Assembly: GCA_965248695.1 (NCBI GenBank)
Contig: CBDFKD010000002.1
Location: 5,472,001-5,536,000 of the forward strand
Direction: 5' to 3'
Origin: Acidobacteriota bacterium
GTDB taxonomy: Bacteria > Acidobacteriota > UBA890 > WLXD01
DNA: 64,000 nucleotides
Position numbers and translations under genes: made by a program. The number at the start of each line of letters is the position of its first letter. Within the stretch, counting starts at the first letter, position 1. The notes below the pieces were generated by a model. That model did no database searches and had not been told where the DNA came from. It saw only the letters and a list, made by a program, of their open reading frames with translations. Positions 6,729 to 52,960 of the stretch are shown piece after piece.

Positions 6729-6995
6729 ATGGCACGTTCACTTCGCAACCCGATCCTGTGCATGTGCGCACTGTTCGTCATTGGCGGCACGCTGCTGCCC
6801 GCGACCGCCGAAGCAGGGTGCTTCGGGGAGCTCGATTCCTGCATGAATTGCGCCCGGAAGTACTTGTGGGAGGGCATCAAAGGGCTCAGTGCGAGTCTGA
6901 TCCGCGACGCCAACGTGATGATGTGGGACTGCAATCTCGATGTGTACCACTGCATCATTCTGGGCAAGCACCACCGCTACGGATGCGCCATCTGA
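6729..6995 (+). CDS. Small secreted Cys-rich protein (88 aa; about 59-aa mature part with 6 Cys)
   Basis: SD GGGGGAG before ATG 6729; hydrophobic signal peptide ending in A-E-A; mature GCFGELDSCMNC...DCNLDVYHC...GCAI. Confidence 0.8.
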   Translation: MARSLRNPILCMCALFVIGGTLLPATAEAGCFGELDSCMNCARKYLWEGIKGLSASLIRDANVMMWDCNLDVYHCIILGKHHRYGCAI

Positions 6996-7029
6996 CCACC
7001 GAAGGCGGTCCGTTTTCGTGCTGGCGGAA

Positions 7030-7059
7030 CTGTCCGGGAGAGCTCGCTCTCCCGGGCAG
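7030..7059 (+). terminator. Strong intergenic hairpin (attenuator, terminator or stabiliser)
   Basis: CTGTCCGGGAGAGC-TC-GCTCTCCCGGGCAG, a 14-bp stem with no U-tract. Confidence 0.45.
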
Positions 7060-7086
7060 CCGCCCAGGACCAGGGGGGTGTTGCTC

Positions 7087-8293: not shown

Positions 8294-8911
8294 TTACCGC
8301 CGTCTACGAAAACGCCACACGGTCGTACCGTGCTCGTCGCCCTGCGTGAATACGAGCACCTCGCCCGAAGCAAACTCGTAGCGGAAGGTGTAGCGCCGTA
8401 CAGTGGACTGATCGTCGAACGACCACCAGCGTCCCTCGACCTCGAGAACGCGCCCATTGCCGGTCCAGTGGGCCCGCTCACGGACCTCGGCGGCGCCGCG
8501 CTCGAATTCGCTCACCGAACCGGCCCAGCGATACGTCTGGACGTTCTGTTCCCCGTTCTCGGGCCGGAACTCGAACACGATTCGGTCGATCTGCTGGTCT
8601 ATCCGGTAGGAGACCTCGCGATCACGCCACACCTCGACCATCGGATCGCTCGAGGCGGCATCGAACAGCCACTCCCCGGTCATGTCGACCACCGGCACGT
8701 CCGAGATCCACGGCGTCCATTCGAGCGGCGGCCTCTCTGGCGGGTCGGCCTGCTCTTGAGCGACCGCCGATGCTGTTGCCAGCGCGGACAGTGTGAGAGC
8801 CGCCAGGATCGCGATGGCGGCGCGTTGCTGCCCGCGACCGACAGCAGAGAAGGAGGCGGCGGGCGGGATCGAACCGCCGAATCGCGGTTTTGCAGACCGC
8901 TGCCTTACCAC
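8294..8911 (-). CDS. Hypothetical secreted beta-strand-rich protein (lipocalin-like barrel?); start unresolved
   Basis: Signal-like AAIAILAALTLSALATASAVA-QEQ; DMTGEW motif and alternating beta strands. The nearest upstream canonical start is GTG 8911, inside tRNA-Cys. Confidence 0.65.
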   Translation of the reverse strand: MVRQRSAKPRFGGSIPPAASFSAVGRGQQRAAIAILAALTLSALATASAVAQEQADPPERPPLEWTPWISDVPVVDMTGEWLFDAASSDPMVEVWRDREVSYRIDQQIDRIVFEFRPENGEQNVQTYRWAGSVSEFERGAAEVRERAHWTGNGRVLEVEGRWWSFDDQSTVRRYTFRYEFASGEVLVFTQGDEHGTTVWRFRRRR

Positions 8912-8925
8912 TTGGCTACGCCGCC
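8854..8925 (-). tRNA. tRNA-Cys(GCA)
   Basis: GGCGGCG acceptor stem, anticodon arm GCGGT-CTGCAAA-ACCGC, GGTTCGATCC T-loop, U discriminator; followed by CCT rather than CCA. Confidence 0.95.
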
Positions 8926-9014: not shown

Positions 9015-9090
9015 TGGAGCGGGAAACGGGATTCGAACCCGCGACCTCAACGTTGGCAACGTTGCGCTCTACCAGCTGAGCTATTCCCGC
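9015..9090 (-). tRNA. tRNA-Gly(GCC)
   Basis: GCGGGAATAGCTCAGCTGGTAGAGC..., anticodon arm CAACG-TTGCCAA-CGTTG, GGTTCGAATCC, encoded CCA; 76 nt. Confidence 0.97.
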
Positions 9091-9192: not shown

Positions 9193-9570
9193 TCAGAGTC
9201 TGAAGGCGTCGCGTACCCATTCGGTTCGAAGTCTGCCTCGACCATCGGTCAGCAGGGCCACTACGTCGAAGCGAATCGACCGGTAGCCGTGCCCGTACTG
9301 TCGCAAGAACGCCGCCGCGGCACGCGCCAGACGAAGCTGCTTGCGAGCGTCGACGGCCTCCAATGGGGTGCCGAAACGGTCAGATCGTCTCGCCTTGACC
9401 TCGACGAACACAAGCGCGCCATCAGCGTCGACTGCGACAAGGTCAATCTCACCGCCCGCCCGGCGGTAGCGCCGCTCGATCACCTCCATTCCGGCCTGTT
9501 TCAGGCACTGCTCGGCATGGCGCTCGGCGGCGCGTCCGAACCGGGCGCGCCAGGCGTTGTGCTGTCCCAT
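9193..9570 (-). CDS. yraN: YraN family (UPF0102) endonuclease-like protein
   Basis: GxxAE...GEIDLV...LVFVEVKAR...RFDVV motifs. Confidence 0.9.
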   Translation of the reverse strand: MGQHNAWRARFGRAAERHAEQCLKQAGMEVIERRYRRAGGEIDLVAVDADGALVFVEVKARRSDRFGTPLEAVDARKQLRLARAAAAFLRQYGHGYRSIRFDVVALLTDGRGRLRTEWVRDAFRL

Positions 9571-9586
9571 GTGAAACAGGAGACGG

Positions 9587-11062
9587 TCAGCGGCTTGCGC
9601 GGCTCCCGGGCAGGCGCCGCCAGCGCACTCCGTCGGGAGTGTCCTCGATCTCGACACCGCGTGCCCGGAGGCGATCCCGCAAAGCGTCCGAGGCCTCGAA
9701 ATCCCGCCCCAGACGGGCCTCGGCGCGCGCCACGATCATGGCCTCGATCTCCGGCCCGACGCTGGGCCCGGAGGCGCGGATGCTCGTACCCTCGTACTCG
9801 ATGTCGAGCTCGCGGCGTTCCTCGCGCTGCAGGATTCCCCAGAGTGCATCGATGTCGGTGAGCCACTCCACTACTCCCTGGAGCGTCTGCCGGTCCGCCT
9901 CCTGGCGATCTAGCGCAGTGTTCACGTCGCGTACCAGGCTGAACACGTGACCCAGCGCACCGGCGCTGTTGAGGTCGTCATCCAGAGCCAGCCCGAAATT
10001 CTCTCGGGCGCGCTCGAGAGCTGCTCGTAGCAATGCGGTGCGCTCCGGATCGTCATCCGGCAAGCGCGGCGATCGCTCCTCGATCCGCGCCAGCAGCTCG
10101 TGCAGGCGGGCGATCGATGCCGACGCCTGTTCAATGGCCTCGAAGGTGAAATTCAACGGCCGCCGATAATGCACCGACGCGAGCAGGTATCGGATCGCCG
10201 TCGGATCGTGCCCTTCCTCGAGCAACTGCGCCAGGGTGTAGAAGTTCCCCAACGACTTGGACATCTTCGTCCCATCAACCACCAGATGGCTGCAGTGCAT
10301 CCAGTGGCGGACGAACTGCACTCCGGTGGCAGCCTCACTCTGGGCTATCTCGTTTTCGTGATGCGGAAAGATCAGGTCGGCACCCCCCAGATGGACATCG
10401 AAGCTCTCACCCAGGTACTTCATGCTCATCGCCGAGCACTCCAGGTGCCACCCTGGCCGACCGTTCCCGAACGGTGACTCCCACGACGGTTCGCCACCGG
10501 TAGCGGCCTTCCACAGCGTGAAGTCTCGCGGGTCCTCCTTCGCCAACCGATCTGTCTCGACGCGTTCGGTCGACTTCATTGCTTCCGGATCGAGGCGAGC
10601 CAGTTGACCGTAGCGGTCGAACGAGGCCACCCGGAAAAAGACGTTGCCCTCAGCAATGTAGGCATGATCGTTGGCAAGCAACTTCGAGATCAGGTCGATC
10701 ATGTCGTCGACGTGGTCGGTCGCCCGCGGGTAGCACGCAGCCGGTCGTACTCCGAGAGCGGTGAGACCACCAAGGAACTCGTCGACGAACGGGTCGGTGT
10801 ACTCGCGCAACGTGACACCCGCCTGCAGCGCGCCCGCGATCGTTCGGTCGTCTACGTCGGTGATGTTCATCACCAGATTCACCTCGTAGCCGCGCCAAAC
10901 GAGGTACCGGTGCACCAGGTCGACCCAGACGAAGAACCGGTAGTTGCCGATGTGCGGCACGTCGTACACGGTCGGACCACACGAGTAGACGCCGACCCGC
11001 GGCGCTGAAGCGGGCGCGAAGGGTTCCTTACGGCGGGTCGCGGTGTTGTAGAAGCGCGGCAT
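9587..11062 (-). CDS. cysS: Cysteine--tRNA ligase
   Basis: CGPTVY, HIGN, GRPGWHLECSAM, FPHHENE, KMSKS. Confidence 0.98.
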   Translation of the reverse strand: MPRFYNTATRRKEPFAPASAPRVGVYSCGPTVYDVPHIGNYRFFVWVDLVHRYLVWRGYEVNLVMNITDVDDRTIAGALQAGVTLREYTDPFVDEFLGGLTALGVRPAACYPRATDHVDDMIDLISKLLANDHAYIAEGNVFFRVASFDRYGQLARLDPEAMKSTERVETDRLAKEDPRDFTLWKAATGGEPSWESPFGNGRPGWHLECSAMSMKYLGESFDVHLGGADLIFPHHENEIAQSEAATGVQFVRHWMHCSHLVVDGTKMSKSLGNFYTLAQLLEEGHDPTAIRYLLASVHYRRPLNFTFEAIEQASASIARLHELLARIEERSPRLPDDDPERTALLRAALERARENFGLALDDDLNSAGALGHVFSLVRDVNTALDRQEADRQTLQGVVEWLTDIDALWGILQREERRELDIEYEGTSIRASGPSVGPEIEAMIVARAEARLGRDFEASDALRDRLRARGVEIEDTPDGVRWRRLPGSRASR

Positions 11063-11086: not shown

Positions 11087-11455
11087 CTAGCAGGCCGTGG
11101 TGGAAGTGTGGCGGGCCTGGTTGCGACGAGTTGGGGCCAGATGCAAGGCGGCCTGACGCACACGATGCCCTAGCAGGCCGTGGTGGAAGTGTGGCGGGCC
11201 TGGTTGCGACGAGTTGGCGCCAGATGCAAGGCGACCTGACGCAGACGATGCACTAGCAGGCCATGGTGGAGGAGGGCCAACGCCGCAGATGGCCCCAAAT
11301 CGCCGCAACCCTTCGGGCGACTGGGGGTTGCGCGCGGATGCTGCTGCGTCGTTTGTCGTCAACGATGGGGTGACCATCGCCTCCTCCTCTCTCCTGGCCT
11401 GCGCCTCGCAAAACCCTGTCGCCAGACCCACCACACTTTCACCACGGCCTGCTAG
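11087..11455. mobile_element. MITE-like palindromic element, family A copy 1 (with an 83-bp internal tandem duplication)
   Basis: CTAG ends; imperfect TIR of about 34 bp CTAGCAGGCCGTGGTG(G/A)AAGTGTGG; near-identical to 37116-37395. Confidence 0.85.
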
Positions 11456-11763
11456 ACGCGGCACGAGACGGTATGTAGATCGGCGCCATCGGTGTCCATA
11501 CCGATCACCACGTCGATGCCATCAGCGACGACCACCAGGCGCGCTCGAATGGCGTCCCCCGCCGTGTCTCCGATGTCGGAGAGCGCCTGTCGCACGTCAA
11601 CCTCTAGCTGATCGCCATCGCAATCGGCGCCGCCGGCCGCAGTCAGGAACGCCCGGGTGGCACTCACCACCAGGCGGAGCATCTCCGAGGGTGTACCCGT
11701 CAGGGTGACCTCCTCGCCAACAAGCTCTTCGTTCATGATTGCAGCGATCGCCTCGTCGCTCAT
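11452..11763 (-). CDS. Hypothetical protein (103 aa)
   Basis: Co-oriented between ribF and cysS, with normal GC-rich codon use and an acidic globular composition. Confidence 0.6.
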   Translation of the reverse strand: MSDEAIAAIMNEELVGEEVTLTGTPSEMLRLVVSATRAFLTAAGGADCDGDQLEVDVRQALSDIGDTAGDAIRARLVVVADGIDVVIGMDTDGADLHTVSCRV

Positions 11764-13707: not shown

Positions 13708-13974
13708 ATGGAAGAGTTGCTGTTGTTACTTTACAGCCGTCCCGGGTGCCATCTTTGCGACGCTGCCAAGGACTCGCTAGCCCCCTTCGTAGAGCGCTAC
13801 GGTCTCCGCGTCGAGGAGCGCAACGTCGAGCTGAATCCGGGATGGGAGCGCAAATACGGCACCCAGATACCCGTCGGAGTGCTCGGCGGGCGCAAAGTGT
13901 TCAAGTACCACCTCGATTCCGGCCGCCTCGAGCGCTCCATTCAGGCGCTGCTACAAGTTCCGCCAGAGGCCTGA
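13708..13974 (+). CDS. Glutaredoxin-like protein (DUF836)
   Basis: YSRPGCHLCD and a cis-Pro IPV motif. Confidence 0.85.
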   Translation: MEELLLLLYSRPGCHLCDAAKDSLAPFVERYGLRVEERNVELNPGWERKYGTQIPVGVLGGRKVFKYHLDSGRLERSIQALLQVPPEA

Positions 13975-25790: not shown

Positions 25791-26038
25791 CGCCGAGGCT
25801 AACTGCTGAGCGATGTCATCGAACGTCGACGGCTGGCTCAGATCTGACAACTGAACTGCCCCTTCGCAGACTCCGGTGAACTCGTCGTTCACTGAACCTG
25901 TGGAAACCGTTGTTGAAAATCAACCGGCCGTGACCGACGGCGCGTATGACCGCAGGGCCTGCAGCGAATTGCACCATCAGCGGTGCAGCGTGACCGGACC
26001 TCGCCGGAGCCGGCGCGCCGCACTTGTGCCACCGCCTG

Positions 26039-27115
26039 CTAGCGGCCGATCCACACGCGCCATCGATCGACTACGCGCTGACCGCGAACCACGAAACACT
26101 CCGGAAAGCACGCTGCTGTGAGACAGGAGTGGTTCGGCAGGATACGCAGGCGCGTGCCGACCGGCTGGGTACGGGAGAGCTTGCCGTGTTCCTGGCTCAG
26201 CGAAACGACCCGCAAGTCGTCGTGCAACGTGCCGGCGTCGTAGTCATCGTAGATCTCGCCCATGGTCGCTGGCGGCAAGCCCGGGTCCTTGGAGAGGGCC
26301 AGCGCGCCCGCATCGAGAATCGCGTGATCGGGCCCGCTGGAGACGACGCTGCTGACGACGGTGAGCGCGCAGTCGGTCACCGCGCAGGAGCCGAGACGTA
26401 CCTGCATCATGTCGAAGTACGCGTAGTTGCCCGGCCGCGCTTCCGTGACACCGTCCAGATTGCGGACAGCGGTCATTGATGGCGTGGAGCCAACGCTGAG
26501 GGCGGGCACCTCGTGGCCGGCGGCGCGAAGCCGCGTAGCGACCTCGACCAGGCATCGTCGCTCAGCCTCGGCGGCTTCGGCACGGCCTTCCACCGTGTCG
26601 TGATCGTAGGCATCACCGGAATGCGACAAGAGGCCCGCGAGGCGCAGCCGGCCGGAGTCGATAGCGGCCACCAGGATTTCCGCCATGTCGGCAGCCGGAT
26701 CGATACCGGCGCGGCCGTACCCGCAATCGACCTTGATCCAGGTCTTGAATGGATGCTGGGTAGCGGACAAAGCCGCCACCGCCGCCAGCGAGTCCACCAC
26801 GACGCCCAGGTCGACACGCTGCGCCAACGTCAGCGCCTGAGGGATGCGCGACAGGATCATCGGAAACGCCCAGGTGATGTCTTCGAACCCTGCGTCGGCG
26901 AACACCTCGGCCTCGAACAGCGTCGCCGCGGTGATCCCGGTGGCGCCTTCCTCGACCTGAAGCTGCCCGATCTCGACGCACTTGTGCGTCTTGACGTGAG
27001 GCCGCAGCGCCACGCCGAGCTGCTCCGCCCGCGCCGCCATGGCGCTGACGTTGCACTCCAGCTTGTCCAGGTCGACGATCAGCGCCGGAGTCGGGAGGTC
27101 ATCAAGATTCATCAT
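26039..27115 (-). CDS. PLP-dependent D-threonine aldolase/D-serine dehydratase (DSD1) family protein
   Basis: TPALIVD, LRPHVKTHK, GSTP, RPGNY, LSQEHG, ILPNHSC. Confidence 0.9.
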   Translation of the reverse strand: MMNLDDLPTPALIVDLDKLECNVSAMAARAEQLGVALRPHVKTHKCVEIGQLQVEEGATGITAATLFEAEVFADAGFEDITWAFPMILSRIPQALTLAQRVDLGVVVDSLAAVAALSATQHPFKTWIKVDCGYGRAGIDPAADMAEILVAAIDSGRLRLAGLLSHSGDAYDHDTVEGRAEAAEAERRCLVEVATRLRAAGHEVPALSVGSTPSMTAVRNLDGVTEARPGNYAYFDMMQVRLGSCAVTDCALTVVSSVVSSGPDHAILDAGALALSKDPGLPPATMGEIYDDYDAGTLHDDLRVVSLSQEHGKLSRTQPVGTRLRILPNHSCLTAACFPECFVVRGQRVVDRWRVWIGR

Positions 27116-36423: not shown

Positions 36424-37119
36424 ATGTCGGCTGAGCCGCTGATCAGCATGGAGGCGATCAAGAAGGTGTTCGTCACCGAGGAGGTCGAGACGCACGCGCT
36501 TTCCGACGTACACCTCGATATCGATCCTGGGGAGTTCGTATCAATCTCCGGACCGTCCGGCTCGGGCAAGACGACGCTGCTGTCGATTCTCGGACTGCTG
36601 GACACCCCCAGCGGGGGCACCTATCTGCTCAACGCCAACGATGTGTCCAACCTCACCGCTTCCGAGCGCGCCCGGGTTCGAAACCGCGAGATCGGCTTCA
36701 TCTTCCAGAGCTTCAACCTCATCGGCGACCTGAACGTGTACGAGAACGTCGAGCTGCCGCTGACGTATCGCGGCATGTCCTCGTCGGATCGTCGCGAGCG
36801 CGTCAACGCCTCCCTGGACCGGGTCGGCATGACACATCGTGCCAAGCACATGCCCAGCCAGCTTTCCGGTGGTCAGCAGCAGCGTGTCGCGGTGGCTCGA
36901 GCCGTCGTCGGTGACCCCTCCATCCTGCTGGCCGATGAGCCCACGGGTAACCTCGACTCGGGCAACGCCTCCGCCGTCATGGACCTCATGTCGGAGCTGC
37001 ACCAGGGTGGCGCCACCATCTGCATGGTCACTCACGACCCGCGCTGGGCCGAGCACGCACAGCGCACCATCCACCTGTTCGACGGCATGGTCGTCGACGA
37101 GCAGGTCGCCGTCGTCTAG
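36424..37119 (+). CDS. ABC transporter ATP-binding protein (LolD/MacB-like)
   Basis: GPSGSGKT, LSGGQQQR, LADEPTGNLD, VTH; SD AAGGAG. Confidence 0.95.
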   Translation: MSAEPLISMEAIKKVFVTEEVETHALSDVHLDIDPGEFVSISGPSGSGKTTLLSILGLLDTPSGGTYLLNANDVSNLTASERARVRNREIGFIFQSFNLIGDLNVYENVELPLTYRGMSSSDRRERVNASLDRVGMTHRAKHMPSQLSGGQQQRVAVARAVVGDPSILLADEPTGNLDSGNASAVMDLMSELHQGGATICMVTHDPRWAEHAQRTIHLFDGMVVDEQVAVV

Positions 37120-37395
37120 CAGGCCGTGGTGAAAGTGTGGTGGGTCTGGTTACGGCGAGTTGGGGCCAGATGCAAGGCAGCCTGACGCACACGATGCCCT
37201 AGCAGGCCGTGGTAGAAGGCCAACGCCGCAGATGGCCCCAAATCGCCGTAACCCTTCGGGCGACTGGGGGTTGCGCGCGGATGCTGCGTCGTTTGTCGTC
37301 AACGATGGGGTAACCATCGCCTCCTCCTCTCTCCTGGCCTGCGCCTCGCAAGACCCTGTCGCCAGACCCACCACACTTTCACCGCGGCCTGCTAG
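37116..37395. mobile_element. MITE-like palindromic element, family A copy 2 (280 bp)
   Basis: CTAGCAGGCCGTGGTGAAAGTGTGGTGGGTCTGG ... CCAGACCCACCACACTTTCACCGCGGCCTGCTAG; homologous to 11087-11455. Confidence 0.85.
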
Positions 37396-37454: not shown

Positions 37455-38285
37455 ATGCTTACCGCCTCGTCTGACGCGCCGCCGTCCGGGTATCTGATCC
37501 CCATCGGTGGCGCCGAAAAGAAGTCCCGGGAACCGCTCATCCTCCGGCGGTTCGTGCAGCTGTGCGGCGACGACGACGCTCGGATCGTCGTCGTGCCGAC
37601 GGCATCCAAGCTGCGGACGACGGGCCCACGCTACGAGCGCGTGCTGACCGAGCTGGGTGCCGGCAGCACCACGTCGCTGCCGTTTCGCGATCGTGCCGAT
37701 TGCGGCCGCGAAGATTGGCTGCGAACCATCGACGAAGCCACCGGCGTCTTTCTCACCGGCGGCTCGCAGCTGCGCCTCAGCCGCACGCTCGGTGGAACGC
37801 CGGCCGCGCGGGCATTGCGACGAGCATCCCGTCGCGGAGCCCATATCGCCGGGACGTCAGCCGGTGCCAGCTACCTTTCCGAGCACATGATTGCGTTCGG
37901 CGAAGCGGGCGCTTCACCGCGGACCCACATGGTGGCCCTTGCCCCTGGCATCGGCCTCACTCGCGACTTCACCATCGACCAGCATTTCCGCGAGCGTGAC
38001 CGACTCGGCCGCCTGCTGACCGCGCTTGCCTACAACCCGTTCATTGTCGGTATGGGCTTGGACGAGAATACCGCCGCCTTCATCGCCCCGGACCGAACGG
38101 TGGAGATTGTCGGCAGCGGCTCCTGCACGCTGGTTGACGGCTCCGACCTCGAGTATTCGTCCGTCGGTGAACAGGCCGGCGATCCGGTCTGTCTTCTCGG
38201 CGTGAGGCTGCACATCCTGCTGCAAGGCGGCAGGTATGACATCGAGTCGCGGCAAGCGCATCGACCACCGGAGAGTGCATCTTGA
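37455..38285 (+). CDS. cphB: Cyanophycinase
   Basis: IGGAE, PTAS, FLTGG.Q.RL, GTSAGA nucleophile, IDQHF..RDRLGRL, GLDENT. Confidence 0.93.
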   Translation: MLTASSDAPPSGYLIPIGGAEKKSREPLILRRFVQLCGDDDARIVVVPTASKLRTTGPRYERVLTELGAGSTTSLPFRDRADCGREDWLRTIDEATGVFLTGGSQLRLSRTLGGTPAARALRRASRRGAHIAGTSAGASYLSEHMIAFGEAGASPRTHMVALAPGIGLTRDFTIDQHFRERDRLGRLLTALAYNPFIVGMGLDENTAAFIAPDRTVEIVGSGSCTLVDGSDLEYSSVGEQAGDPVCLLGVRLHILLQGGRYDIESRQAHRPPESAS

Positions 38286-41081
38286 TGAAGATCCTCGACT
38301 CGCGCGTCTATCTGGGACCAAGCCTCTACGCTCACTTCCCGGTGATCCAGATGACCGTCGATCTGGACATCCTGGAGCAATGGCCCAGTGCGCGCCTCGG
38401 CGACGGGTTTATCGATGCGCTCCTCGATGCGCTCCCGGGCCTGGCCGACCACGGCTGCTCGTATCGGCAGCCTGGTGGATTCGTCCGCCGTCTGCGCGAG
38501 GATGAGGGTACGTGGATGGGGCACGTCCTCGAGCACTGCGCCCTCGAGCTACAGAATGTCGCCGGCAGCCAAGTAAGCTTCGGACGCACGCGGTCGATCG
38601 GCGAGGAGCCCGGCATCTATTCCGTGGTGTACCAGTACGAGCAGGAGGATGTCGGCCGCGCCGCCGGCGACCTGGCGCTGACGCTGCTGCACAGCCTGCT
38701 GCCGGAGGATTTGCGCCACGCCGGAACGCTCGAGCGCGACTTCAACTTCGCCGAGGAGCGTGACGACCTGATCCGCTGGGCCCAGCGCCGCGCCCTCGGG
38801 CCCAGCACAGCTTCCCTTGTGCGGGCGGCCGAGGATCGAGATATCCCTTGGATCCGACTGAACGCCCAAAGCCTCGTGCAGTTCGGGTTCGGGCGCCATC
38901 AGCGGCGCATCCAGGCGACGATCACCAGCGAGACCCGACACATCGCGGTCGAGATCTCGTCGGACAAAGAGGAGACCAACAAGATCCTCGCAGCCCTCGG
39001 TCTCCCGGTACCTAAGCAACGTCTCGTGCGTTCGGTCCAGGCAGCAACGCGCGCCGCGGAGCGCATCGGCTATCCGGTGGTCGTGAAGCCGTACAACGCC
39101 AATCACGGACGCGGCGTCTCCATCGATCTGCAAGATGCCGAGCAGGTGGCCACCGCTGTCAAGCAAGCGCAGCAGCACAGCCGCAGCGTTCTGGTGGAGA
39201 GCTTCATCACCGGGCTCGACCACCGCATGGCGGTGGTCAACGGCGAGTTGATCGCCGCCGCCAAGCGCATGCCGGCGCATGTCATCGGCGACGGGACGCA
39301 CACGATCGAGGAACTGGTCGAAGCGGTGAACGAGGATCCCCGACGCGGGATTGGCCACGAGAAGGTGCTCACCCGGATCGAGTTCAACCACCAGTCCGAC
39401 AGGCTGCTGGCACAGGGCGACTATCGCCGCACGAGCGTGCCACCGAAGGACGAGATCGTCTTTCTGTGCGCCACCGCCAACCTCTCGACCGGGGGTACGG
39501 CGATCGACGTCACCGACGTCGTCCATCCCGACAATCGCGAGATGGCCGTCCGCGCCGCTGGAGCAATCGGCCTGGACGTAGCCGGCGTCGACTTCCTCAC
39601 CGATGACATCTCCAAGTCGTACAAGGAGTCGGGCGGCGCCATCTGCGAGATCAACGCGGCGCCCGGGTTCCGCATGCACGTGTCTCCTAGCGAAGGTGAG
39701 CCGCGCGACGTCGCCGGTGCGGTGATCGACATGCTCTTCCCGCCCGGCAGCTCGAGCCGCGTCCCCATTGCAGCGATCACCGGAACGAACGGAAAGACGA
39801 CCACGGCCCGCATGCTGGCGCACATACTCAAGCTTTCGGGGAACCGCGTTGGCCTGACTTCGACGGATGGCGTGTACATCGATGGTCAGCTCAGCGTGAA
39901 GGGCGACATGACGGGACCGGTGGCGGCACGCATGGTGCTTCGTGACCCGGCGGTCGATGTGGCCGTGCTGGAGACCGCGCGTGGCGGGCTGCTGCGCGCC
40001 GGCATGGGGTATCGCCGCTGCAACGTGGCGTGCTGCCTGAACATACAGGGGGACCATCTCGGCCTCCGCGGTATCGACACGCTGGAGCAACTCGCCGAGG
40101 TCAAGCGAATTCCCATCGAGGTGGCGTCGGATGCCGCGGTGCTCAACGCCGACGACCCCTCACTGCCTGCGCATGGCGGACTACACGGAGGCGGAACAGA
40201 TCTGCTACGTGACGATGAGTCGTGAGCACACGCTGGTTAAGGAGCATATCCGCGCCGGCGGGCGGGCCGTGGTTCTGGAGGAGGGCATGAACGGTCACAT
40301 GATCGCCCTCTACGACGGCGGCTCGCACGTGCCGTTGCTGTGGACCCATCTGATTCCAGCGACCCTCGAAGGGCGCGCCATGCACAACGTCCAGAACGCC
40401 ATGTTCGCGGCGGCGCTGGCGCACTGCCTCGACGTCAGCCTGGACAACATCAAGCAGGGGTTGCGAACCTTCGACACGACGTTCTTCCAGGCGCCGGGGC
40501 GGATGAATATCTTCGACGGCCACCCCTTCAAGGTGATCCTCGACTATGGCCACAACCCCGCGGCGGTGCAGGCCATGTGCGATCTCGTCAGCCGCCTGGA
40601 TCGGGATGGAAAGGCAATCTGCGTGCTGGCAGCACCCGGCGACCGCCGTGATGAGGACATCCGCAGCATCGCTAGGATCGCCGCGCCGCATTTCGACGAG
40701 TTCGTTTGCCGCCGCGACGATCAGCTGCGTGGCCGCGATGCAGACGAGATTCCACAGATGCTGGCCGACGAATTGAGGTCGGCTGGCGTCGCTGACGAGG
40801 CCGTACGCATGATTCCCGCCGAGGATGAAGCGGTCGAAGCAGCTCTGCGTGGTGCTCGCCCCGGCGATCTGCTTCTCATGTTCGCCGACAACTTGTCGCG
40901 CTGCTGGAAGCAGATTGTGCACTTCGAGCCTGCCGGCGAGACCACGGCGGTGCCCGCGCAGACGACGGCCGCTCCGATAGACCTTCCGGAAGCGCCCGTC
41001 AGCCTCCTTTCTGGCGACGAGCGTCTCATCCGCGACGAGCGTGGCGTGCGGCTAGCCCGCGAGGTCGAAGAGGCCGACTGA
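38285..41081 (+). pseudogene. cphA: Cyanophycin synthetase split by a one-base frameshift at about 40156-40159 (true pseudogene or sequence error)
   Basis: N domain HGCS...GTWMGHVLEH, LGPST, ATP-grasp KP..NHGRG / NLSTGG / EINAAPGFRMH, Mur domain ITGTNGKTT / ETARGG. Continues in another frame with PGRMN, DYGHNP, GDRRDED. Confidence 0.9.
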
Positions 41082-46265: not shown

Positions 46266-47399
46266 ATGTCATATGACGCCATCGTCATCGGTCTGGGTAC
46301 GATGGGGAGCGCGGCAGCATGGCAGCTCGCTGGCCGCGGCTGCTCCGTGCTTGGCGTGGATCGCCACGTTCCACCGCACGCGTTCGGCTCGGCGCACGGT
46401 CGCTCGCGCATCATCCGCACGGCGTACATGGAAGACCCCGCCTATGTGCCCCTGGTGCGCCGGTCCTTCGACCTCTGGCGACAGCTCGAAGATCTGACCC
46501 GCACCGAGCTCTTGCGTAGCACTGGCCTACTGATGATCGGGCTGCCGGACGGCGATGCCGTGTCGGGCAGCCTGGCTAGCGCCCGAACGCACGATCTCCC
46601 CTACGAGCTGCTCGACGCCGCTGAGCTCCGACATCGGTTTCCGGCGTTTGAGCCCGACGATGATCTGGCGGCCTTCTACGAGGAGGTCGCCGGCATTCTG
46701 CCGCCGGAATCGTGCATCGCCGCGCTTCTGGAGGCGGCGGCCGGATCGGGAGCCGAGCTGCGCTACGGCGAGCAGGTGCTCGGATGGGAGCAGGACAGCC
46801 ACGGCGTGCGAGTGCGTACCGATACCGGTGAACATACGGCCCGGTCGCTCGTTGTGACCGCCGGCGCCTGGACGGCGCAGGTACTATCGACATTCGACTT
46901 CAAGCTCACCGTTGAACGCCAGGTGATGCACTGGTTCGAGCCCATCGCCGACCTCGATACGTTCGCCCCAGGTCGATTTCCAGTCTTCCTGTGGGAACCG
47001 CCCGTCGGGCCGGTGCTGTACGGCATGCCAGCGCTCGACGGTCCGGGCGGTGGCGTGAAGGTAGCGATTCACCATAGTGGCGAGACGACGACCGCCGATC
47101 GCATTGATCGCACCGTCCACGAAGCCGATATCGATGCCGTGCGCAGCTGCATGGCCGATCGCATTCCGAGCCTCAACGGACGCTGGCTCGAAGGCACCGT
47201 CTGTATGTATACGAACACACCCGATATGCATTTCATCATCGGCCGGCACCCCGCCGCGGGGCGCGTCTTCGTTGCCACCGGATTCTCCGGCCACGGGTTC
47301 AAGTTCGCCCCTGTAGTGGGCGAGGCGCTCGCCGACCTCGTCATCAACGGCGACACGCAGCTTCCGCTGGAGCCTTTCTCTCCGGCGCGCTTCAGCTGA
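46266..47399 (+). CDS. solA: N-methyl-L-tryptophan/sarcosine oxidase family flavoprotein
   Basis: GLGTMGS, GSAHGRSRIIR.AY, CMYTNTPD.HFII, GFSGHGFKF. Confidence 0.9.
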   Translation: MSYDAIVIGLGTMGSAAAWQLAGRGCSVLGVDRHVPPHAFGSAHGRSRIIRTAYMEDPAYVPLVRRSFDLWRQLEDLTRTELLRSTGLLMIGLPDGDAVSGSLASARTHDLPYELLDAAELRHRFPAFEPDDDLAAFYEEVAGILPPESCIAALLEAAAGSGAELRYGEQVLGWEQDSHGVRVRTDTGEHTARSLVVTAGAWTAQVLSTFDFKLTVERQVMHWFEPIADLDTFAPGRFPVFLWEPPVGPVLYGMPALDGPGGGVKVAIHHSGETTTADRIDRTVHEADIDAVRSCMADRIPSLNGRWLEGTVCMYTNTPDMHFIIGRHPAAGRVFVATGFSGHGFKFAPVVGEALADLVINGDTQLPLEPFSPARFS

Positions 47400-47439: not shown

Positions 47440-47729
47440 CTAGTGGTCTGTAACAGATGAACGTTGCCTATCGCAGATGGGATTTGCGGGTGAGATCAAG
47501 GCGCGGCGAGGACGGCGATGCAGTGAGCATCGTCGACGAGGTGCAACGCCGATATCGCCCGCAACTGCCCATCTGTCCGTAGGCCCATCAAGAGAACAGT
47601 GGCGAAATGGACCCGTCTGCCCCGTTGCTCCTCCTCGAAGATGGGCCAACATCGTCTCGTCGGTGCGCCTGGCATCCGAGCCCATTTCGCCACCACGATA
47701 GGCAACGTTCATCTGCTACAGGCCACTAG
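47440..47729. mobile_element. MITE-like palindromic element, family B copy 1 (290 bp)
   Basis: TIR CTAGTGGTCTGTAACAGATGAACGTTGCCTATCG ... CGATAGGCAACGTTCATCTGCTACAGGCCACTAG. Confidence 0.85.
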
Positions 47730-48676
47730 GAGGGGTTCAAGAGCGTCGCAGGATCGGTGTTGCCGCCGCAGACAAGCACCCCGACCCGGGCGCCATCCTG
47801 CAAGCGATAAGCTCGCGAGAGGAGCGCCGCAAGTGCCGCCGCACCGCCCGGCTCGGCGACCACCCGTAGTCGATCCCACAGCAGCCACCGCGCTCGGAGG
47901 ATCGCTTCGTCGGTAACCAGGACGCTATCGTCGACCCACCTCTGCGCACAGGCGAATCCTGTATCTCCGATGCGACTTGCCCCGAGCGAGTCCTGAGCCA
48001 AGCCGCCGACCGTGACATCCACCGGCTCCCCCTCGGCAAGAGCCCGCGACAGTGTCGGGCAGCCCTCGGGCTCGACCGCCACGACGCGTACCTCGTCACG
48101 AAGCCACGCCGACATCCCGCCGATCAGGCCGCCGCCACCGACCGCGACCAGAACGGCGTCGAGATCACCCGCCTGTTGTTGTAGCTCGAGCCCGACCGTG
48201 CCGGCTCCAGCGACGATCGACGCTTGATCGTACGCATGGACAATCAGCGCACCCGTCTCCTCCGCTCGCGCTTCCGCGGCCTGGCGGGCAACGTTGTAGA
48301 TCTCGCCGCCCTGCACTACCCGAGCTCCGAGCTCATGCAGCCGCGCGACCTTGATCGCAGGCGTGGTTTCCGGCACGAAGATCTCGGCGCGATGGCCGAG
48401 CTCACGCGCCGCGTAGGCCACCGCCTGGGCGTGGTTCCCTCCCGACGCCGCCACCACGCCCACGTCCGGCACGTCGGCGGCGAGCACCCGATTGAAGGCC
48501 CCGCGTGGCTTGAAGGACCCGGTATGCTGCAGCTGCTCGAGCTTGAGCAACAGACGCACGCCCGGCATCTCGAGCTCGGTTCCGTCGACCTCGATAACCG
48601 GCGTGCGACGCACATGCGGCGCGATACGCTCCGCCGCCGCGGTGATCTCGGCGCGTGACGGCGGCACTGCGCTCAT
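47726..48676 (-). CDS. Threonine/serine dehydratase family PLP enzyme
   Basis: KLEQLQHTGSFKPRG, SGGNH, VGGGGL, EPGGA, CGGN. Confidence 0.92.
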   Translation of the reverse strand: MSAVPPSRAEITAAAERIAPHVRRTPVIEVDGTELEMPGVRLLLKLEQLQHTGSFKPRGAFNRVLAADVPDVGVVAASGGNHAQAVAYAARELGHRAEIFVPETTPAIKVARLHELGARVVQGGEIYNVARQAAEARAEETGALIVHAYDQASIVAGAGTVGLELQQQAGDLDAVLVAVGGGGLIGGMSAWLRDEVRVVAVEPEGCPTLSRALAEGEPVDVTVGGLAQDSLGASRIGDTGFACAQRWVDDSVLVTDEAILRARWLLWDRLRVVAEPGGAAALAALLSRAYRLQDGARVGVLVCGGNTDPATLLNPS

Positions 48677-48870
48677 CGGCACCCTCGCCGGTACGGCTCG
48701 ACAGAGCTTCGCATCGTTCCTCCTCTGCTGGCATTCGACCGCGCTTGCGGGTATCGTCAGCCGCCGGCGCGGCGAAGAGCTGACATGGATTCTCCCACTA
48801 GCCGGTCGTTGAAGCGCCCCAGCAGGCGGGTCCCCAGCCCGACCACTCGCTAGCTCCCCGAGCCGACGAG

Positions 48871-50517
48871 ATGCCGCCACCATACGCTACCGATACCTCG
48901 TCGCGCCGCGCCGTCGTTGGCGCCGGTCTCATAGTGTTCGTGAGCTCCGCGCTCATCATGACCCTGGAGATCGTTGCCGCTCGACTCGTGGCGCAGCACC
49001 TCGGCGTGTCGCTCTATACCTGGACTGCGGTGATCGGGGTGGTGCTGGCCGGGATCACGGTGGGCAACTACGTCGGCGGCAAGCTCGCGGACCTGTATCC
49101 GCCGCGCGCCCTCCTGACGACCCTCTTCCTGCTCGCCTCCATGTCGAGCCTCTCGGTGCTGTTCGTTGTCGATTGGATGGGGTCCTGGGAGCGACCGGAG
49201 TACTTTTCGTGGCCGCTTTGGATCCTACGCAACGTCGCCCTCACGTTCATGGCTCCGGCAACCATCATGGGAACGATCTCCCCGGTGGCGGCCAAGCTGG
49301 CCTTGGAGGCACGGCGCGAGGTCGGCGCCACGGTGGGATCACTGTACGCCAGCGGCGCCGCCGGCAGCATTCTCGGCACCTTTCTCACCGGCTATGTCCT
49401 GATTGACGCGTTCGGAACCAAGACCATCGTCTGCGGAATCGCCGCCGGCCTCGGGCTCCTGGGACTGCTGGCGGCCGTCGGCCTGCGCCGCAGTCCGGCC
49501 TCGTTCTTCGTCGTATGGCTGTCGATCTTGTTCCTGGTTTCGGCTCTCTCCGTGGCGCCATGGAGCTGGAGCGAACGGTGGGGTCATTTCCTCGGTCTGC
49601 GTTTCGCCACCGACCATCTCCATTATCAAGACGAGAGCAGTTATTTCTCGATCGAGATCTATGACGCCGAGGACTTCGACAACACCCGTGTGCTGGCGCT
49701 CGATCACCTCGTCCACAGTTACGTCAACATGGACGACGTCACGCAACTGGAGTACGGCTACGAGACAGTCTACGCCGCCGTGACACACCACCTCGCCGAC
49801 ACCGACCAGCCCCTGAGGGCGCTGTTCATCGGCGGCGGCGGCTACACGTTCCCGCGCTATCTGGAAACCCGATTCACGGCATCGGCGATCGACGTCGCGG
49901 AGATCGACCCGGCCGTCAAGCGCGCAGCTCAAGCAGCCCTCGGTCTACCGGCCGATGAGGATACGCGCATCCACACCCACACTATGGACGCACGCAACTA
50001 CGTCGACGATCTCCGGCGGCGCAATCACCGCTCCGCGGACCCGCAGCGGTTCGATTTCGTCTACGGCGACGCATTCAACGACCTCGGCGTGCCGTACCAC
50101 CTGACCACCCAGGGGTTCAACGAACGGCTCGCCGAGGTGATGTCGCCCGAAGGCGTTTACATGATCAACGTCATCGACATCTACCGGGAAGGGCTTGGAG
50201 CGTTTCTGGGCGCCTATGTGGCCACGATACGACGCACCTTCCCGTTCGTGTACGTCTTCGCGGGCGACCCGGACGGACCTACGGACGAACGCGACACATT
50301 CATCGTGGTGAGCTCCGGACGAGCCTTGCCGATCCTGCAGATCGATCCGCAGGAGGGCGTCCCGGACGCATGGGGTCGGGTCTTCGCGTGGGCCGAGCGC
50401 GACCATCTGGGCGGCGAGATGATTACCGTCCTGGACCGGGCCCGTGGTCTGATCCTCACCGACGATTATGCCCCGGTCGACAACCTGCTGGCTCCAGTGT
50501 TCTCAAGCAACGAATGA
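48871..50517 (+). CDS. Fused MFS/spermidine synthase-like methyltransferase-fold protein
   Basis: N-terminal TM bundle (GS.LGTFLTG), IGGGGY, EIDP, DAR, DAF, LTDDYAPV. Confidence 0.88.
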   Translation: MPPPYATDTSSRRAVVGAGLIVFVSSALIMTLEIVAARLVAQHLGVSLYTWTAVIGVVLAGITVGNYVGGKLADLYPPRALLTTLFLLASMSSLSVLFVVDWMGSWERPEYFSWPLWILRNVALTFMAPATIMGTISPVAAKLALEARREVGATVGSLYASGAAGSILGTFLTGYVLIDAFGTKTIVCGIAAGLGLLGLLAAVGLRRSPASFFVVWLSILFLVSALSVAPWSWSERWGHFLGLRFATDHLHYQDESSYFSIEIYDAEDFDNTRVLALDHLVHSYVNMDDVTQLEYGYETVYAAVTHHLADTDQPLRALFIGGGGYTFPRYLETRFTASAIDVAEIDPAVKRAAQAALGLPADEDTRIHTHTMDARNYVDDLRRRNHRSADPQRFDFVYGDAFNDLGVPYHLTTQGFNERLAEVMSPEGVYMINVIDIYREGLGAFLGAYVATIRRTFPFVYVFAGDPDGPTDERDTFIVVSSGRALPILQIDPQEGVPDAWGRVFAWAERDHLGGEMITVLDRARGLILTDDYAPVDNLLAPVFSSNE

Positions 50518-50619
50518 GCGCGGTGGGCAGCACTTCGCGACCGGTCAGAACAACGTCCGGGCGGCCAGGCGGCGCCTGCTGACGCACCGACCGACCGGCG
50601 CTTCGCTAGACTCGGCGGC

Positions 50620-51813
50620 ATGAAGGACGATTCCGGCTCCGTAGCCACCACGAGCGGCCTGCTGGCGGTCTACCTGACGGTCTTCGTCGACATGGTGGCG
50701 TTCGCCGTGATTCTTCCGGCGCTGCCGTTCTGGGCCATGCGCATGGGCGCCGGGGGCTTGTGGCTCGGCGTGCTCCTGACCTCCTACTCGGGCGCCAAGC
50801 TCGTTGGCGCGGCGCTCGCCGGACGAGCCTCCGACATCTGGGGACGTAAGCCCGTGCTGGTCGCCTGCCTTGCAGGCTCGGGAGTCTCCTTCATCCTCAC
50901 AGGTCTGGCGCCCTCGTTGCTGGCTCTGGCGGCAGCGCGAGCGGTGGCCGGTCTGTTCGGCGGGACGGTGGCCACCGCGCAGGCCTACGTCGCTGACGTG
51001 ACTCGCCCGACGGAGCGGGCCAAGTACATGGGGCTTCTCGGCGCCGCCATCGGCACGGGGTTCATCGTCGGCCCCGGCCTCGGCGTCGGGCTCAGCCGGT
51101 TCGGGTTCCTGGTAGTAACGCTCGTCGCCGCGGCGCTAGCGTTCGGCAACGCCATCCTGGCCGTCGTCAAGATACGTGAGACGCAGCCGGCCGCTGCCCG
51201 TGCGCTCGTCGATGCGGAGTCTCGCGCCGGCGGCCGGCGCGGCGCGGTCGTCATCTTGTCGGCGACGTTTCTGATCATCTTCGCGTTCGTGTCGATGGAG
51301 ACGACGCTGGCGTTCGTTGCTCACGACCGGTACTCGCTCGCGGAGCGCGGTTTCGGCCTCATCCTGGTGTTCGTCGGGCTCGTGATGATCGTCGTTCAGG
51401 GCGGCCTGGTCGGCAGGCTGGCTCCGAAGTACGGAGAGAGGAGGCTAGCCTGCTACGGCGCTCTCCTGCTCGGCACCTCGCTGGTGCTGCTACCGCTGGC
51501 TCCCGGGCTGGCGGCGACCATACTGCTGCTGGGCCTGCTCGCCTTCGGACAGGGACTGGCGTCGCCGACGCTGTCAGCTCTGTTGTCGCGCTACAGCGTC
51601 GGCCATGAACGGGGCGGAATGCTGGGAATCGGCCAATCTACGGCCTCGGCAGCACGAACGATCGCGCCGATCACTGCCGGATGGCTTTACGACCAGGGGG
51701 CGCCCTGGCCGTTTCTACTAGCCGGCCTGATGGCGCTGATCGCCGGCCTCGTCGTCAGCCGCTCGCCGCGCGTCGACGTTACCGAAGTCAGCCAGCCGAC
51801 GGCGCCGTGCTAG
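50620..51813 (+). CDS. MFS efflux transporter (TetA/DHA1-like)
   Basis: GRASDIWGRKP motif A, AQAYVAD, G..GAA.G.GFIVGP. Confidence 0.9.
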   Translation: MKDDSGSVATTSGLLAVYLTVFVDMVAFAVILPALPFWAMRMGAGGLWLGVLLTSYSGAKLVGAALAGRASDIWGRKPVLVACLAGSGVSFILTGLAPSLLALAAARAVAGLFGGTVATAQAYVADVTRPTERAKYMGLLGAAIGTGFIVGPGLGVGLSRFGFLVVTLVAAALAFGNAILAVVKIRETQPAAARALVDAESRAGGRRGAVVILSATFLIIFAFVSMETTLAFVAHDRYSLAERGFGLILVFVGLVMIVVQGGLVGRLAPKYGERRLACYGALLLGTSLVLLPLAPGLAATILLLGLLAFGQGLASPTLSALLSRYSVGHERGGMLGIGQSTASAARTIAPITAGWLYDQGAPWPFLLAGLMALIAGLVVSRSPRVDVTEVSQPTAPC

Positions 51814-51815
51814 CG

Positions 51816-52094
51816 CTAGTGGCCTGTAACAGATGAATCGATAGTGCCGTGGTGGCGAAATGGGGTCGGATACAAGGCGCTCCGACGAGTCGATGTTGGT
51901 GCATCTCCGAGGAGGGGCAACGCCGCAGGCGGCCCGATTTCGCCGCCATCCTGCGGACAGATAGGCAGTTGCGGGCAAACTCGGCGTTGCGACTCGTCGA
52001 CGATGCGCCGCGGCATCGCCATCCTCGCCGCGCCTTGATCTCGCCCGCAAAGCCCATCTGCGGCGCTATCGATTCATCTGTTACAGGCCACTAG
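51816..52094. mobile_element. MITE-like palindromic element, family B copy 2 (279 bp, inverted relative to copy 1)
   Basis: TIR CTAGTGGCCTGTAACAGATGAATCGATAG ... CTATCGATTCATCTGTTACAGGCCACTAG; internal arms homologous to 47440-47729. Confidence 0.85.
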
Positions 52095-52960
52095 ATCGCC
52101 CGCAACGGTGTCAGCAACGAACGCAGCGGGGCGTGAACGTGCCCGTTCGTCGCCACGATGTTGCGGCCGTGGAGTAAGCGCTGCAGCTCGGCGCTACCGG
52201 AGCAGTCGGTCACGCGGCCGCCCGCCTCGTTCACCAACAGGATCCCTGCAGCGACGTCCCAGGGTTCCAGGTGTAACTCCCAGTAGCCGTCAAGGCGCCC
52301 GCACGCCACCAGGGCGAGATCGAAGGCAGCTGAACCCAGCCGGCGCAACCCGCCAGCAACCACCCCGACGCGCGGCACATTGTCGAGGTTGTTGTCGGCG
52401 AGCGTGTCCCGTGCGTACGGGAATCCGGTGGCCAGGATCGCGTCGCTCAGGTGATTTGTAGCGGACACCGTTGCCACGGTGCCTTCGAGCGTCGTGCCGC
52501 CACCGCGAGTGGCGGCGAACGTCATCTGCAACAGCGGCGCGTGCACCACGCCGGCTACCAGCTCGCCGTGCTCGATCACCGCGATCGATACACACCACAC
52601 GGGCAGGCCGTGGAGGAAATTGACCGTCCCGTCGAGCGGATCGACCACCCATAGACGCTCGGAATCGCCATCACGACGACCCGATTCCTCAGCCAGCACG
52701 GCATCGTGGCGCGGTATCCGATCGAGGATCCAGCGTTCCGCCTCGACGTCGGCAGCGCTCACCAGGTCCCGACGACGCCCTCCCTTGCGACGGGCGTCCG
52801 CGGCGTTGAGCTTGCCGTAGTGGCGGAGCAGCACGGTGCCGGCGCCATGGGCGATATCGATGAGCTGATCGAGCACGGCCGGGTCCCGGGGGCAGGGTCG
52901 TTGAGCAAGCGGGGAGGCAGAAGCCGCCGCAGATGGCGGCGTCGGTGCCCCGCAGGTCAC
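52091..52960 (-). CDS. suhB: Inositol monophosphatase family protein
   Basis: DLVSAAD, EE, WVVDPLDGT.NF, RRLGSAA, WDVAAG. Confidence 0.9.
   Translation of the reverse strand: MTCGAPTPPSAAASASPLAQRPCPRDPAVLDQLIDIAHGAGTVLLRHYGKLNAADARRKGGRRRDLVSAADVEAERWILDRIPRHDAVLAEESGRRDGDSERLWVVDPLDGTVNFLHGLPVWCVSIAVIEHGELVAGVVHAPLLQMTFAATRGGGTTLEGTVATVSATNHLSDAILATGFPYARDTLADNNLDNVPRVGVVAGGLRRLGSAAFDLALVACGRLDGYWELHLEPWDVAAGILLVNEAGGRVTDCSGSAELQRLLHGRNIVATNGHVHAPLRSLLTPLRAI

Follow-up and report, generated by a model that had tools for sequence, protein, structure and literature searches.

A 64,000-nt stretch of genomic DNA from an Acidobacteriota bacterium (GCA_965248695.1, contig CBDFKD010000002.1; the whole stretch is referred to as the window) contains four repeats, A1, A2, B1 and B2, which are very probably transposable elements of miniature size with inverted repeats (MITEs). 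Their interior consists of copies of an arm of about 105 nt, and with equally high confidence this arm is a conserved single-strand fold, which recurs in at least ten bacterial phyla. The elements appear to work like other MITEs, and what seems to be new is a conserved inside with exchangeable ends. While the MITE status and the conserved fold are well supported, the reason given below for keeping the fold, namely a host protein that binds the element while it is single-stranded DNA, is a proposal.

The assignment as MITEs rests on the ends, which match those of IS630 and IS5-family insertion sequences (IS). The four repeats lie exactly where the initial annotation of this stretch had placed them, with CTAG on both sides. 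Their terminal inverted repeats (TIRs) score 28 (B1) and 31 (B2) over 34 nt, or extend over 34 nt at 91% (A1) and 47 nt at 85% (A2). In a comparison with 23 reference ends from 12 autonomous IS, 14 of 18 TIR positions of family B agree with an IS630 (NF033545) end, and 15 of 18 of family A with an IS5-family (NF033581) end. Agreement at 14 of 18 positions was reached by 1 of 102 other CTAG sites in the window and by 1 of 20000 random sites. Autonomous IS with similar TIRs were found in this way for both families; the initial annotation had proposed to look for IS with the same TIRs. At the loci of the genome scan described below (labelled by L-numbers), both ends of L005 are matched, left to right and right to left, by those of an IS630 element, and an end of L024 matches the left end of an IS5-family element; the IS630 and IS5 families were confirmed.

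Between their TIRs, the dispersed window elements have no coding capacity for a DDE transposase. They are probably non-autonomous DDE mini-transposons moved in trans, the transposase being of the IS630 type for B and of the IS5 (NF033581) type for A, and the idea of a stand-alone RNA system gives way to this assignment. No IS630 or IS5 transposase was found in the window or in 1.25 Mb of flanks of the listed loci. An all-against-all comparison of 1106 ORFs from these flanks revealed no recurrent mobile neighbour gene; the largest cluster is an ABC ATPase (14 loci), the next occurs at nine loci and the rest at five or fewer. Two end remnants in the same orientation at L013 (6083 and 7352, minus strand) were rejected as the borders of an autonomous copy, as the 419-aa ORF that they flank is host enzyme-like and no transposase is present. 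In blastn searches of plasmids, L047, the whole B2 and A2 elements and one end of each gave chance-level hits only, as did B2 when compared with phages.

Insertion would take place at TA or CTAG, often in a stop codon. One CTAG of each window element (4/4) holds the stop codon of an adjoining ORF. This is the right CTAG in B1 (serine/threonine dehydratase gene), in B2 (inositol monophosphatase-family gene, with the stop of the MFS gene 2 nt ahead of the left end) and in A1 (ORF 11452-11763, minus strand), and the left CTAG in A2 (ABC ATPase gene, with cyanophycinase next on the same strand). CTAG flanks both sides of 32 of 91 copies from the scan. The flank variants would fit a putative target-site duplication of TA, of 3 bp or of 4 bp, CTAG itself being palindromic.

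The arm was recovered in the window with a covariance model built from arms of other genomes alone, without any window sequence. The eight window arms are the top eight of 14 hits (E-values 9e-16 to 0.033; the ninth has 0.14), and the three arm sequences quoted in the initial annotation are present. The minus-strand arms of family A, already described there as more degenerate, are the two weakest of the eight (16.2 and 20.5 bits). A strict arm pattern has three matches in the window and a looser one four, compared with none in 100 dinucleotide shuffles each. Every arm (8/8) starts 57–58 nt from its own CTAG end. The initial annotation had distinguished two families with different TIRs and the same Y-shaped design. 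The ends do differ; the bodies of the two families, by contrast, align collinearly through both arms and across the junction, with an identity of 63% (random window stretches: mean 53%), so that the distinction lies mainly in the ends.

In both A copies a copy of the element's own terminal sequence is located inside an arm loop (window 11087-11272 and 37199-37215), and A1 contains an 83-bp tandem duplication (11087-11169 and 11170-11252). The terminal sequence in the loops and the repeat of the first 83 bp of A1 look like the result of self-insertion at a loop CTAG, followed by recombination.

An exact-pattern scan of GTDB genomes for the arm yielded at least 127 matches at at least 118 loci in at least 92 genomes, as counted from accession prefixes. 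The arm occurs in at least ten phyla, namely Pseudomonadota, Planctomycetota, Acidobacteriota, Myxococcota, Thermodesulfobacteriota, Omnitrophota, Actinomycetota, Gemmatimonadota, Spirochaetota and Krumholzibacteriota. Phyla were taken from record titles; most carriers are metagenome-assembled genomes (MAGs), and single assignments may be mis-binned. All counts of copies from the scan, here and above, refer to the matches listed. Up to four loci per genome were found, compared with four copies within 64 kb here, and among the matches listed the closest B-type bodies are from Acidobacteriota MAGs (L067, 82%). Culturable carriers include Pseudomonas sp. 10-1B, Janthinobacterium and Solimonas aquatica. 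An arm also lies on a Mitsuaria plasmid (L120, 1463-1561), between the genes for exosortase B and an autokinase and without a CTAG end.

A clear TIR frame, defined by a score of at least 17 of 24, surrounds 91 of 122 assessable matches. The usual form is a one-arm hairpin of about 165 bp (73/91), and the Y element of about 280 bp is its two-arm derivative. The latter design is a minority, since only 18 of the 91 framed copies are longer on the right, and these mostly have two arms. The motif lies 56–58 nt from the left end in 70/91 and 55–57 nt from the right end in 56/73; the left end was searched only 50–63 nt away, and an unrestricted search gave the identical dominant distance. Second arms placed purely by their distance from the far end contain the core AGG in 18 of 20 cases, four of them window arms, while other offsets give a mean of 0.9 and a maximum of 4.

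The same body is found with different ends. Among 83 scored elements, 29 have IS630-like ends, eight IS5-like ends and 46 are unassigned against the 23 reference ends; IS630-like and IS5-like ends each occur on one-arm and on Y bodies. The body of A2 is as similar to L048 (72%) and L096 (70%), which carry other ends, as to L045 (71%), which has the A2-type end. The arm may be older than the ends, which would have been exchanged for those of several IS families while the distance stayed at 56–58 nt. L067 (~9835-10112) is a B-like Y element in which one end is that of the window B elements and the opposite end is IS630-like but different, possibly an end swap in progress.

Several further arrangements were observed among the loci. 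Mini-elements of 55–65 bp that consist of TIRs only (L015 ~13739-13800, L021 ~9552-9615 and L035 ~719-768) share their ends with a nearby full element, lack the arm, and are deletion products or precursors. Head-to-tail arrays of three and four whole elements are found at L038 (~9930-10660) and L075 (~9950-10600), with periods of 245 and 163 nt and 3–4 bp between elements. Stacked arm-bearing elements adjoin each other at L011 (~9940-10270), L107 (~245-570) and L073 (~6880-7340); in L011 and L107 they have different end types and one common target, which suggests insertion into each other's target sites.

Support for the fold comes from 80 de-duplicated arms, in which 20 core positions are fixed by the scan pattern and five of the 29 pairs are set by it and hence uninformative. 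Paired cells amount to 84%, compared with 58% after shuffling and 30–49% in slid controls, and none of 500 shuffles equalled the observed covariation score. In 42 disjoint nearest-neighbour sequence pairs, 176 of 219 double changes retain a standard pair (201 counting G.A), while shuffled partners give a mean of 30 and a maximum of 69. Strong covariation, which the initial annotation had named as a check, is thus present.

The fold is also strand-specific. In 1092 free stem cells G-T outnumbers A-C by 124 to 19, and G.A outnumbers T.C by 73 to 11. G-T likewise prevails in the TIR stem (72 vs 17 in 60 one-arm copies, 8 vs 4 in 14 Y elements) and among close copies within 17 genomes (19 vs 4). 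The module strand is the more stable one in 58 of 59 elements, with RNA and DNA parameters alike (-104 vs -86 kcal/mol for the two strands). The arm folds well on one strand only and worse on the opposite strand. In the window, this asymmetry in minimum free energy (MFE) folding is found in all four B arms and is missing in three of the four A arms, so that the A copies look decayed. As both energy models show equal asymmetry, they do not discriminate between DNA and RNA; neither do the terminal loops, which are diverse without a dominant sequence. The loop of the Y junction can be read as a GNA triloop on one strand, and the opposite strand would give UNCG.

The conserved purine-rich positions had been read in the initial annotation as bulges. 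This AA-bulge register was rejected, because no more than 10 of 28 arms from outside the strict pattern show a Watson-Crick combination at its key pair. The test left out 14 of 42 rows, which were not anchorable or duplicates, and its counts include three to four mis-anchored rows. An alternative register covaries in the same 28 arms, with L7.R1 being GC in 19, AT in four and other in five; L6.R2 is CA in 21, AG in five and CG in two, and L2.R6 is AC in 16, CC and GA in three each, TA and AA in two each, and TC and CG in one each. The arm is better read as a continuous helix with what would be two X-A-S-G-Y copies on both strands (A.G/S-S'/G.A), the centres being 10 nt apart. In arms not picked by sequence, the AGG/ACG core stays fixed, as do the spacing of 10 nt and the distance of 57 nt. 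The outer motif is mostly C.A/A.C, which is weaker than G.A. In the 4-bp spacer, Watson-Crick pairs (45/84) swap freely with tandem GA/AG (21/84), and extra GA tandems are scattered along the stem at differing positions. A kink-turn has a 3-nt bulge directly beside tandem G.A/A.G; it was rejected for the arm, since the supported register contains no 3-nt bulge and only one unpaired base beside the outer motif. For RNA, an isosteric set of sheared (tSH) pairs has been listed, in which G with C is said never to occur (PMC8450098, as far as this source was drawn on). With the exception of CG, all X.Y pairs seen at the twin motif fall within this set, and a sheared-type geometry of the motif is probable.

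In most Y elements (for example window A and B, L013, L031, L045, L048, L052, L067, L082 and L096), an arm with inner GAGGA/GACGA is combined with an arm of the swapped type; L023 and L084 are exceptions. Read by eye, the unlike inner motifs of the two arms would prevent a perfect long palindrome.

The features and flanking genes are compiled in Table 1.

Table 1. Arm-bearing elements, arms and flanking genes of the window
Feature	Position	Strand	Description
Element B1	47440..47729		Two-arm (Y) MITE, IS630-type ends, CTAG both sides, 290 bp
B1 arm 1	47473..47574	+	Inner motif GAGGA/GACGA; core 47497-47551; 57 nt from left end; 63.4 bits
B1 arm 2	47596..47696	-	Inner motif GACGA/GAGGA; 57 nt from right end; 49 bits
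Element B2	51816..52094		Y MITE, IS630-type ends, 279 bp, inverted relative to B1
B2 arm	51849..51948	+	Core 51873-51925; 68.8 bits
B2 arm	51959..52061	-	Core 51982-52037; 62.3 bits
Element A1	11087..11455		Y MITE, IS5-family-type ends, 369 bp
A1 arm	11203..11308	+	Copy of A1's own terminal sequence in loop; 49.9 bits
A1 degenerate arm	11321..11421	-	58 nt from right end; 16.2 bits, E 0.033
Element A2	37116..37395		Y MITE, IS5-family-type ends, 280 bp
A2 arm	37149..37251	+	Inner hairpin damaged by terminal-repeat-like insert; 44.7 bits
A2 arm	37261..37362	-	Variant outer motif (A.G replaces C.A pair); 20.5 bits
Solitary A-like end	26022..26042	-	4 mismatches in 20; at stop of gene 26039-27115
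Flanking gene	46266..47399	+	N-methyl-L-tryptophan oxidase family; reads towards B1
Flanking gene	47726..48613	-	Serine/threonine dehydratase; complete up to stop within B1 end
Flanking gene	50620..51813	+	MFS transporter, under all curated tetracycline-pump cut-offs; reads towards B2
Flanking gene	52091..52876	-	Inositol monophosphatase family; stop within B2 end

No arm was found behind the solitary A-like end. The ORF list of the window includes ORFs across A1, A2 and B2, and arm-bearing elements thus yield spurious ORFs. No Rfam 15 family reached its gathering score with the arm, and the whole window gave only two tRNAs, whose genes are located at 8854-8925 and 9018-9090 (minus strand). 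Between 47300 and 52200 there were no Rfam hits with E up to 10, and in 20 of the 118 listed loci the search returned one tRNA and generic miRNA-hairpin hits far under threshold. Elsewhere in the window, cyanophycin synthetase is encoded in two overlapping frames (38282-41081). Of the 862 profile positions, 1-614 are accounted for by the first ORF, and ORF 40131-41081 follows in another frame, due to a frameshift or a sequencing error. Two 69-nt direct repeats, 94% identical and 102 nt apart, lie at 2384-2554 and bear no relation to the arm.

The fixed distance from the end, the survival of the arm through end swaps, the bias in the TIR stem and the lack of a preferred orientation suggest that selection acts on how the element itself is copied. 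This favours a stage as single-stranded DNA, bound by a host protein, over the other readings. To this reading we assign a probability of roughly 0.4. One strand of the arm would form a continuous rod with two symmetric motifs, in each of which sheared-type A.G pairs enclose a central C-G/G-C pair. This fold would matter while the element is single-stranded DNA, be it on the lagging strand, during transfer between cells or upon partial extrusion. A conserved host protein is proposed to bind the twin distortion, in line with the protein-binding fold postulated initially, and it might help the stiff 165-bp element to join its ends or to survive processing, so that well-folding copies would leave more descendants. 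The Y form would offer one good arm per strand, and as its arms differ, no single long perfect palindrome would arise. An HU/IHF-type bender is the first candidate for the binder, with the HU family as the lead because its members kink DNA at two sites 9 bp apart; HU from T. maritima prefers 4-nt loops at this spacing about 4-fold (PMC2475624, in the part of the account relied on here). The central IHF consensus that marks MITEs of the Correia type occurs in none of the 91 framed elements and in none of the four window elements, whereas an IHF site is present in other MITEs according to the section of PMC3184786 used here.

Several points weigh against such a stage. Standard DDE cut-and-paste transposition acts on double-stranded ends, and to our knowledge there is no precedent for a single-strand helper in this process. 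The arm is not needed for all movement, as it is absent from the autonomous IS checked (0/12) and from the TIR-only mini-elements at three loci. Stems rich in G-U and substitutions that follow a sheared-pair series are what RNA typically shows, and this series is known from RNA structures. Among flanking genes there is a non-significant trend towards sense orientation, with 52 of 78 left genes reading the module strand and 46 of 83 right genes reading the other. Part of the G-T bias could stem from strand-specific deamination rather than selection, and the constant distance between arm and end could reflect common descent. As for HU, equivalent tandem mismatches in the arm are 8 bp apart (centres 10) instead of 9, and HU is not sequence-specific, while the core of the motif is.

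A role at the RNA level ranks close behind the single-stranded DNA stage and is still unlikely. Read-through transcripts would fold into the rod, the near-perfect terminal stem would be cut or trimmed to a defined RNA, and the twin motif would bind an RNA-binding protein, stabilising transcripts or regulating the element. The G-U-rich stems and the substitutions at L2.R6 and L6.R2, which apart from CG stay within the RNA tSH set, are consistent with this, and ERIC and Correia repeats are known to affect mRNA stability (PMC3184786, same section). The genomic context was analysed with a simple gene scorer for 106 modules, 43 of which lacked one or both gene calls. It shows a preference for 3'-ends, with 21 copies between convergent and six between divergent genes against a background of 115:115, and 28 ends of the 73 one-arm copies have a terminal TAG that serves a called gene as its stop. 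Such a bias is, however, expected from TAG targeting. A tail-to-tail bias is also seen in unrelated MITE-like repeats, where the passages of PMC2718517 drawn on ascribe it to the least harmful site. Between co-directional genes, one-arm copies are in sense orientation 21 times and antisense 15 times (p=0.41). The initial annotation had placed both B copies between convergent genes, which the gene calls bear out, and had argued that each transcript would receive a correctly oriented arm in its 3' untranslated region. This argument is weakened by the orientation counts and does not extend to a rule for Y elements, as A1 and A2 lie between co-directional genes, and of the 18 Y elements from the scan ten are co-directional, three convergent, one divergent and four not classifiable. 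B1 and B2 contain neither a promoter or terminator consensus nor a site for a Rho-independent terminator (G+C stem and U run), and the diverse loops likewise speak against an RNA function.

Structural camouflage without a specific partner comes next and is distinctly less likely. Long palindromes are harmful (SbcCD), and a perfect 165-bp palindrome would do harm as DNA, as an unstructured spacer would as RNA; tandem G.A and G-T pairs would keep one strand folded and stop cruciform extrusion, and similar motifs would persist merely through their stability. The free swap of Watson-Crick pairs with tandem GA/AG in the spacer and the further GA tandems in the stem agree with this idea, and the weak orientation bias would suit the modest gain in stability. 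The core, spacing and distance that stay fixed in arms not selected by sequence argue against it, and the weaker C.A/A.C pairs of the outer motif are not favoured by stability alone.

Highly improbable is a domesticated host element, the dispersed copies of which would help to organise the nucleoid by providing cruciforms or hairpin RNAs, in the manner of E. coli naRNA4. This RNA, derived from REP325, bridges cruciforms, for which it requires HU and two hairpins (PMC4550694, as excerpted). The Y form offers two such hairpins and the phylogenetic spread is wide. On the other hand, the ends follow mobile IS families, the neighbours are random, the A copies of the window are decaying and most copies have one arm only. 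Neutral MITE filler, in which covariation would come from arm-to-arm copying of the palindrome and the motif from the search pattern, can draw on the 20 pattern-fixed core positions and on the fact that palindromes homogenise by template switching, yet this reading is largely refuted, as template switching would produce strand-symmetric Watson-Crick pairs instead of G-T far above A-C or swaps with tandem GA, the register covaries and second arms placed by geometry keep the core. The initial claim that the arm is not neutral filler is thus upheld by covariation far above controls, the strand-specific fold, recurrence in at least ten phyla and in unrelated TIR backbones, the lack of an Rfam match and the second arms.

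Known bacterial MITEs, such as Correia/CREE, ERIC, Nezha, Chunjie, P. fluorescens R0/R2 and MITEPye1, are similar in size (100–400 bp), share TIRs with IS, encode no transposase, form long stem-loops and occupy intergenic or 3'-end sites, some with TA-type flanks (PMC3184786, PMC2718517 and PMC11578231, in the portions used here). They are described as genus-level repeats with one IS type each, and 97.4% of RefSeq MITE clusters are confined to one genus according to the part drawn on of bioRxiv 10.1101/2024.01.18.576219. In contrast, the inside of the elements described here is conserved over at least ten phyla while the ends vary, and its strand-specific non-canonical helix has no counterpart in the cited portions of those accounts. 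Autonomous IS630 (NF033545) and IS5 (NF033581) copies share the terminal 18–32 nt and the CTAG/YTAR flanks; unlike the elements, they encode a transposase and lack the arm (12/12). Integron attC sites and REP/REPIN sequences may be likened to the arm as imperfect palindromes of which one strand is favoured and is read in folded, single-stranded form. They are handled by a tyrosine recombinase or an HUH transposase and have no DDE-type TIRs.

A relative of the arm may have been noted earlier. Gmet_R1xxx of Geobacter metallireducens comprises 24 intergenic copies of ~113 nt, which were listed as 'predicted short RNA elements' of a few deltaproteobacteria (Aklujkar 2009, PMC2700814, in the part consulted). 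By eye, the central palindrome in Fig. S1 of that paper resembles the inner hairpins, and on the reverse strand the left half of the outer motif is exact in nine of 24 rows and the right half in several; the spacer from outer motif to central hairpin is longer. That part of the account mentions neither TIRs, covariation, strand asymmetry nor a link to IS. The MRSC-65-2 motif and 250 mobile or repeat candidates (Narunsky 2024, PMC11109978, main features as excerpted) are alike in having one long covarying stem, many phyla and many copies per genome, with DNA or RNA left open. MRSC-65-2 itself was rejected, as its hallmark UYCCGG is present in 11 of the 91 framed elements and in none of the four in the window; the arm family could be among the other 249 candidates of that set. 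No description of the arm module was found in the open literature, a search that did not extend to ISfinder and the Narunsky 2024 supplement. Of the initial view that the structure was undescribed, the lack of an Rfam match stands, while the possible Geobacter relative of 2009 qualifies it.

The interiors of MITEs are usually regarded as remnants or as sequence specific to a genus. In the present elements it is the interior that is conserved, in the form of a strand-specific non-canonical fold whose distance from the end is constant. This turns the question of why bacterial MITEs are such good hairpins into a testable one, including whether the fold serves the element or the host, and the covariation yields precise candidate mutations. 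As there is no Rfam model and the elements give rise to spurious ORFs, a covariance model would aid annotation. More speculatively, the arm could be a plug-in mobility module, a single-strand structure specific in sequence and shape and recognised by a widespread putative bacterial protein. Placed 57 nt from an end, it would enhance the copying or the horizontal spread of whatever short DDE element contains it, and it would often have acquired new ends from unrelated transposase families across at least ten phyla. If this doubtful but far-reaching idea were true, it would add a transposase-independent second layer to MITE biology, with a single-stranded stage as DNA or RNA.

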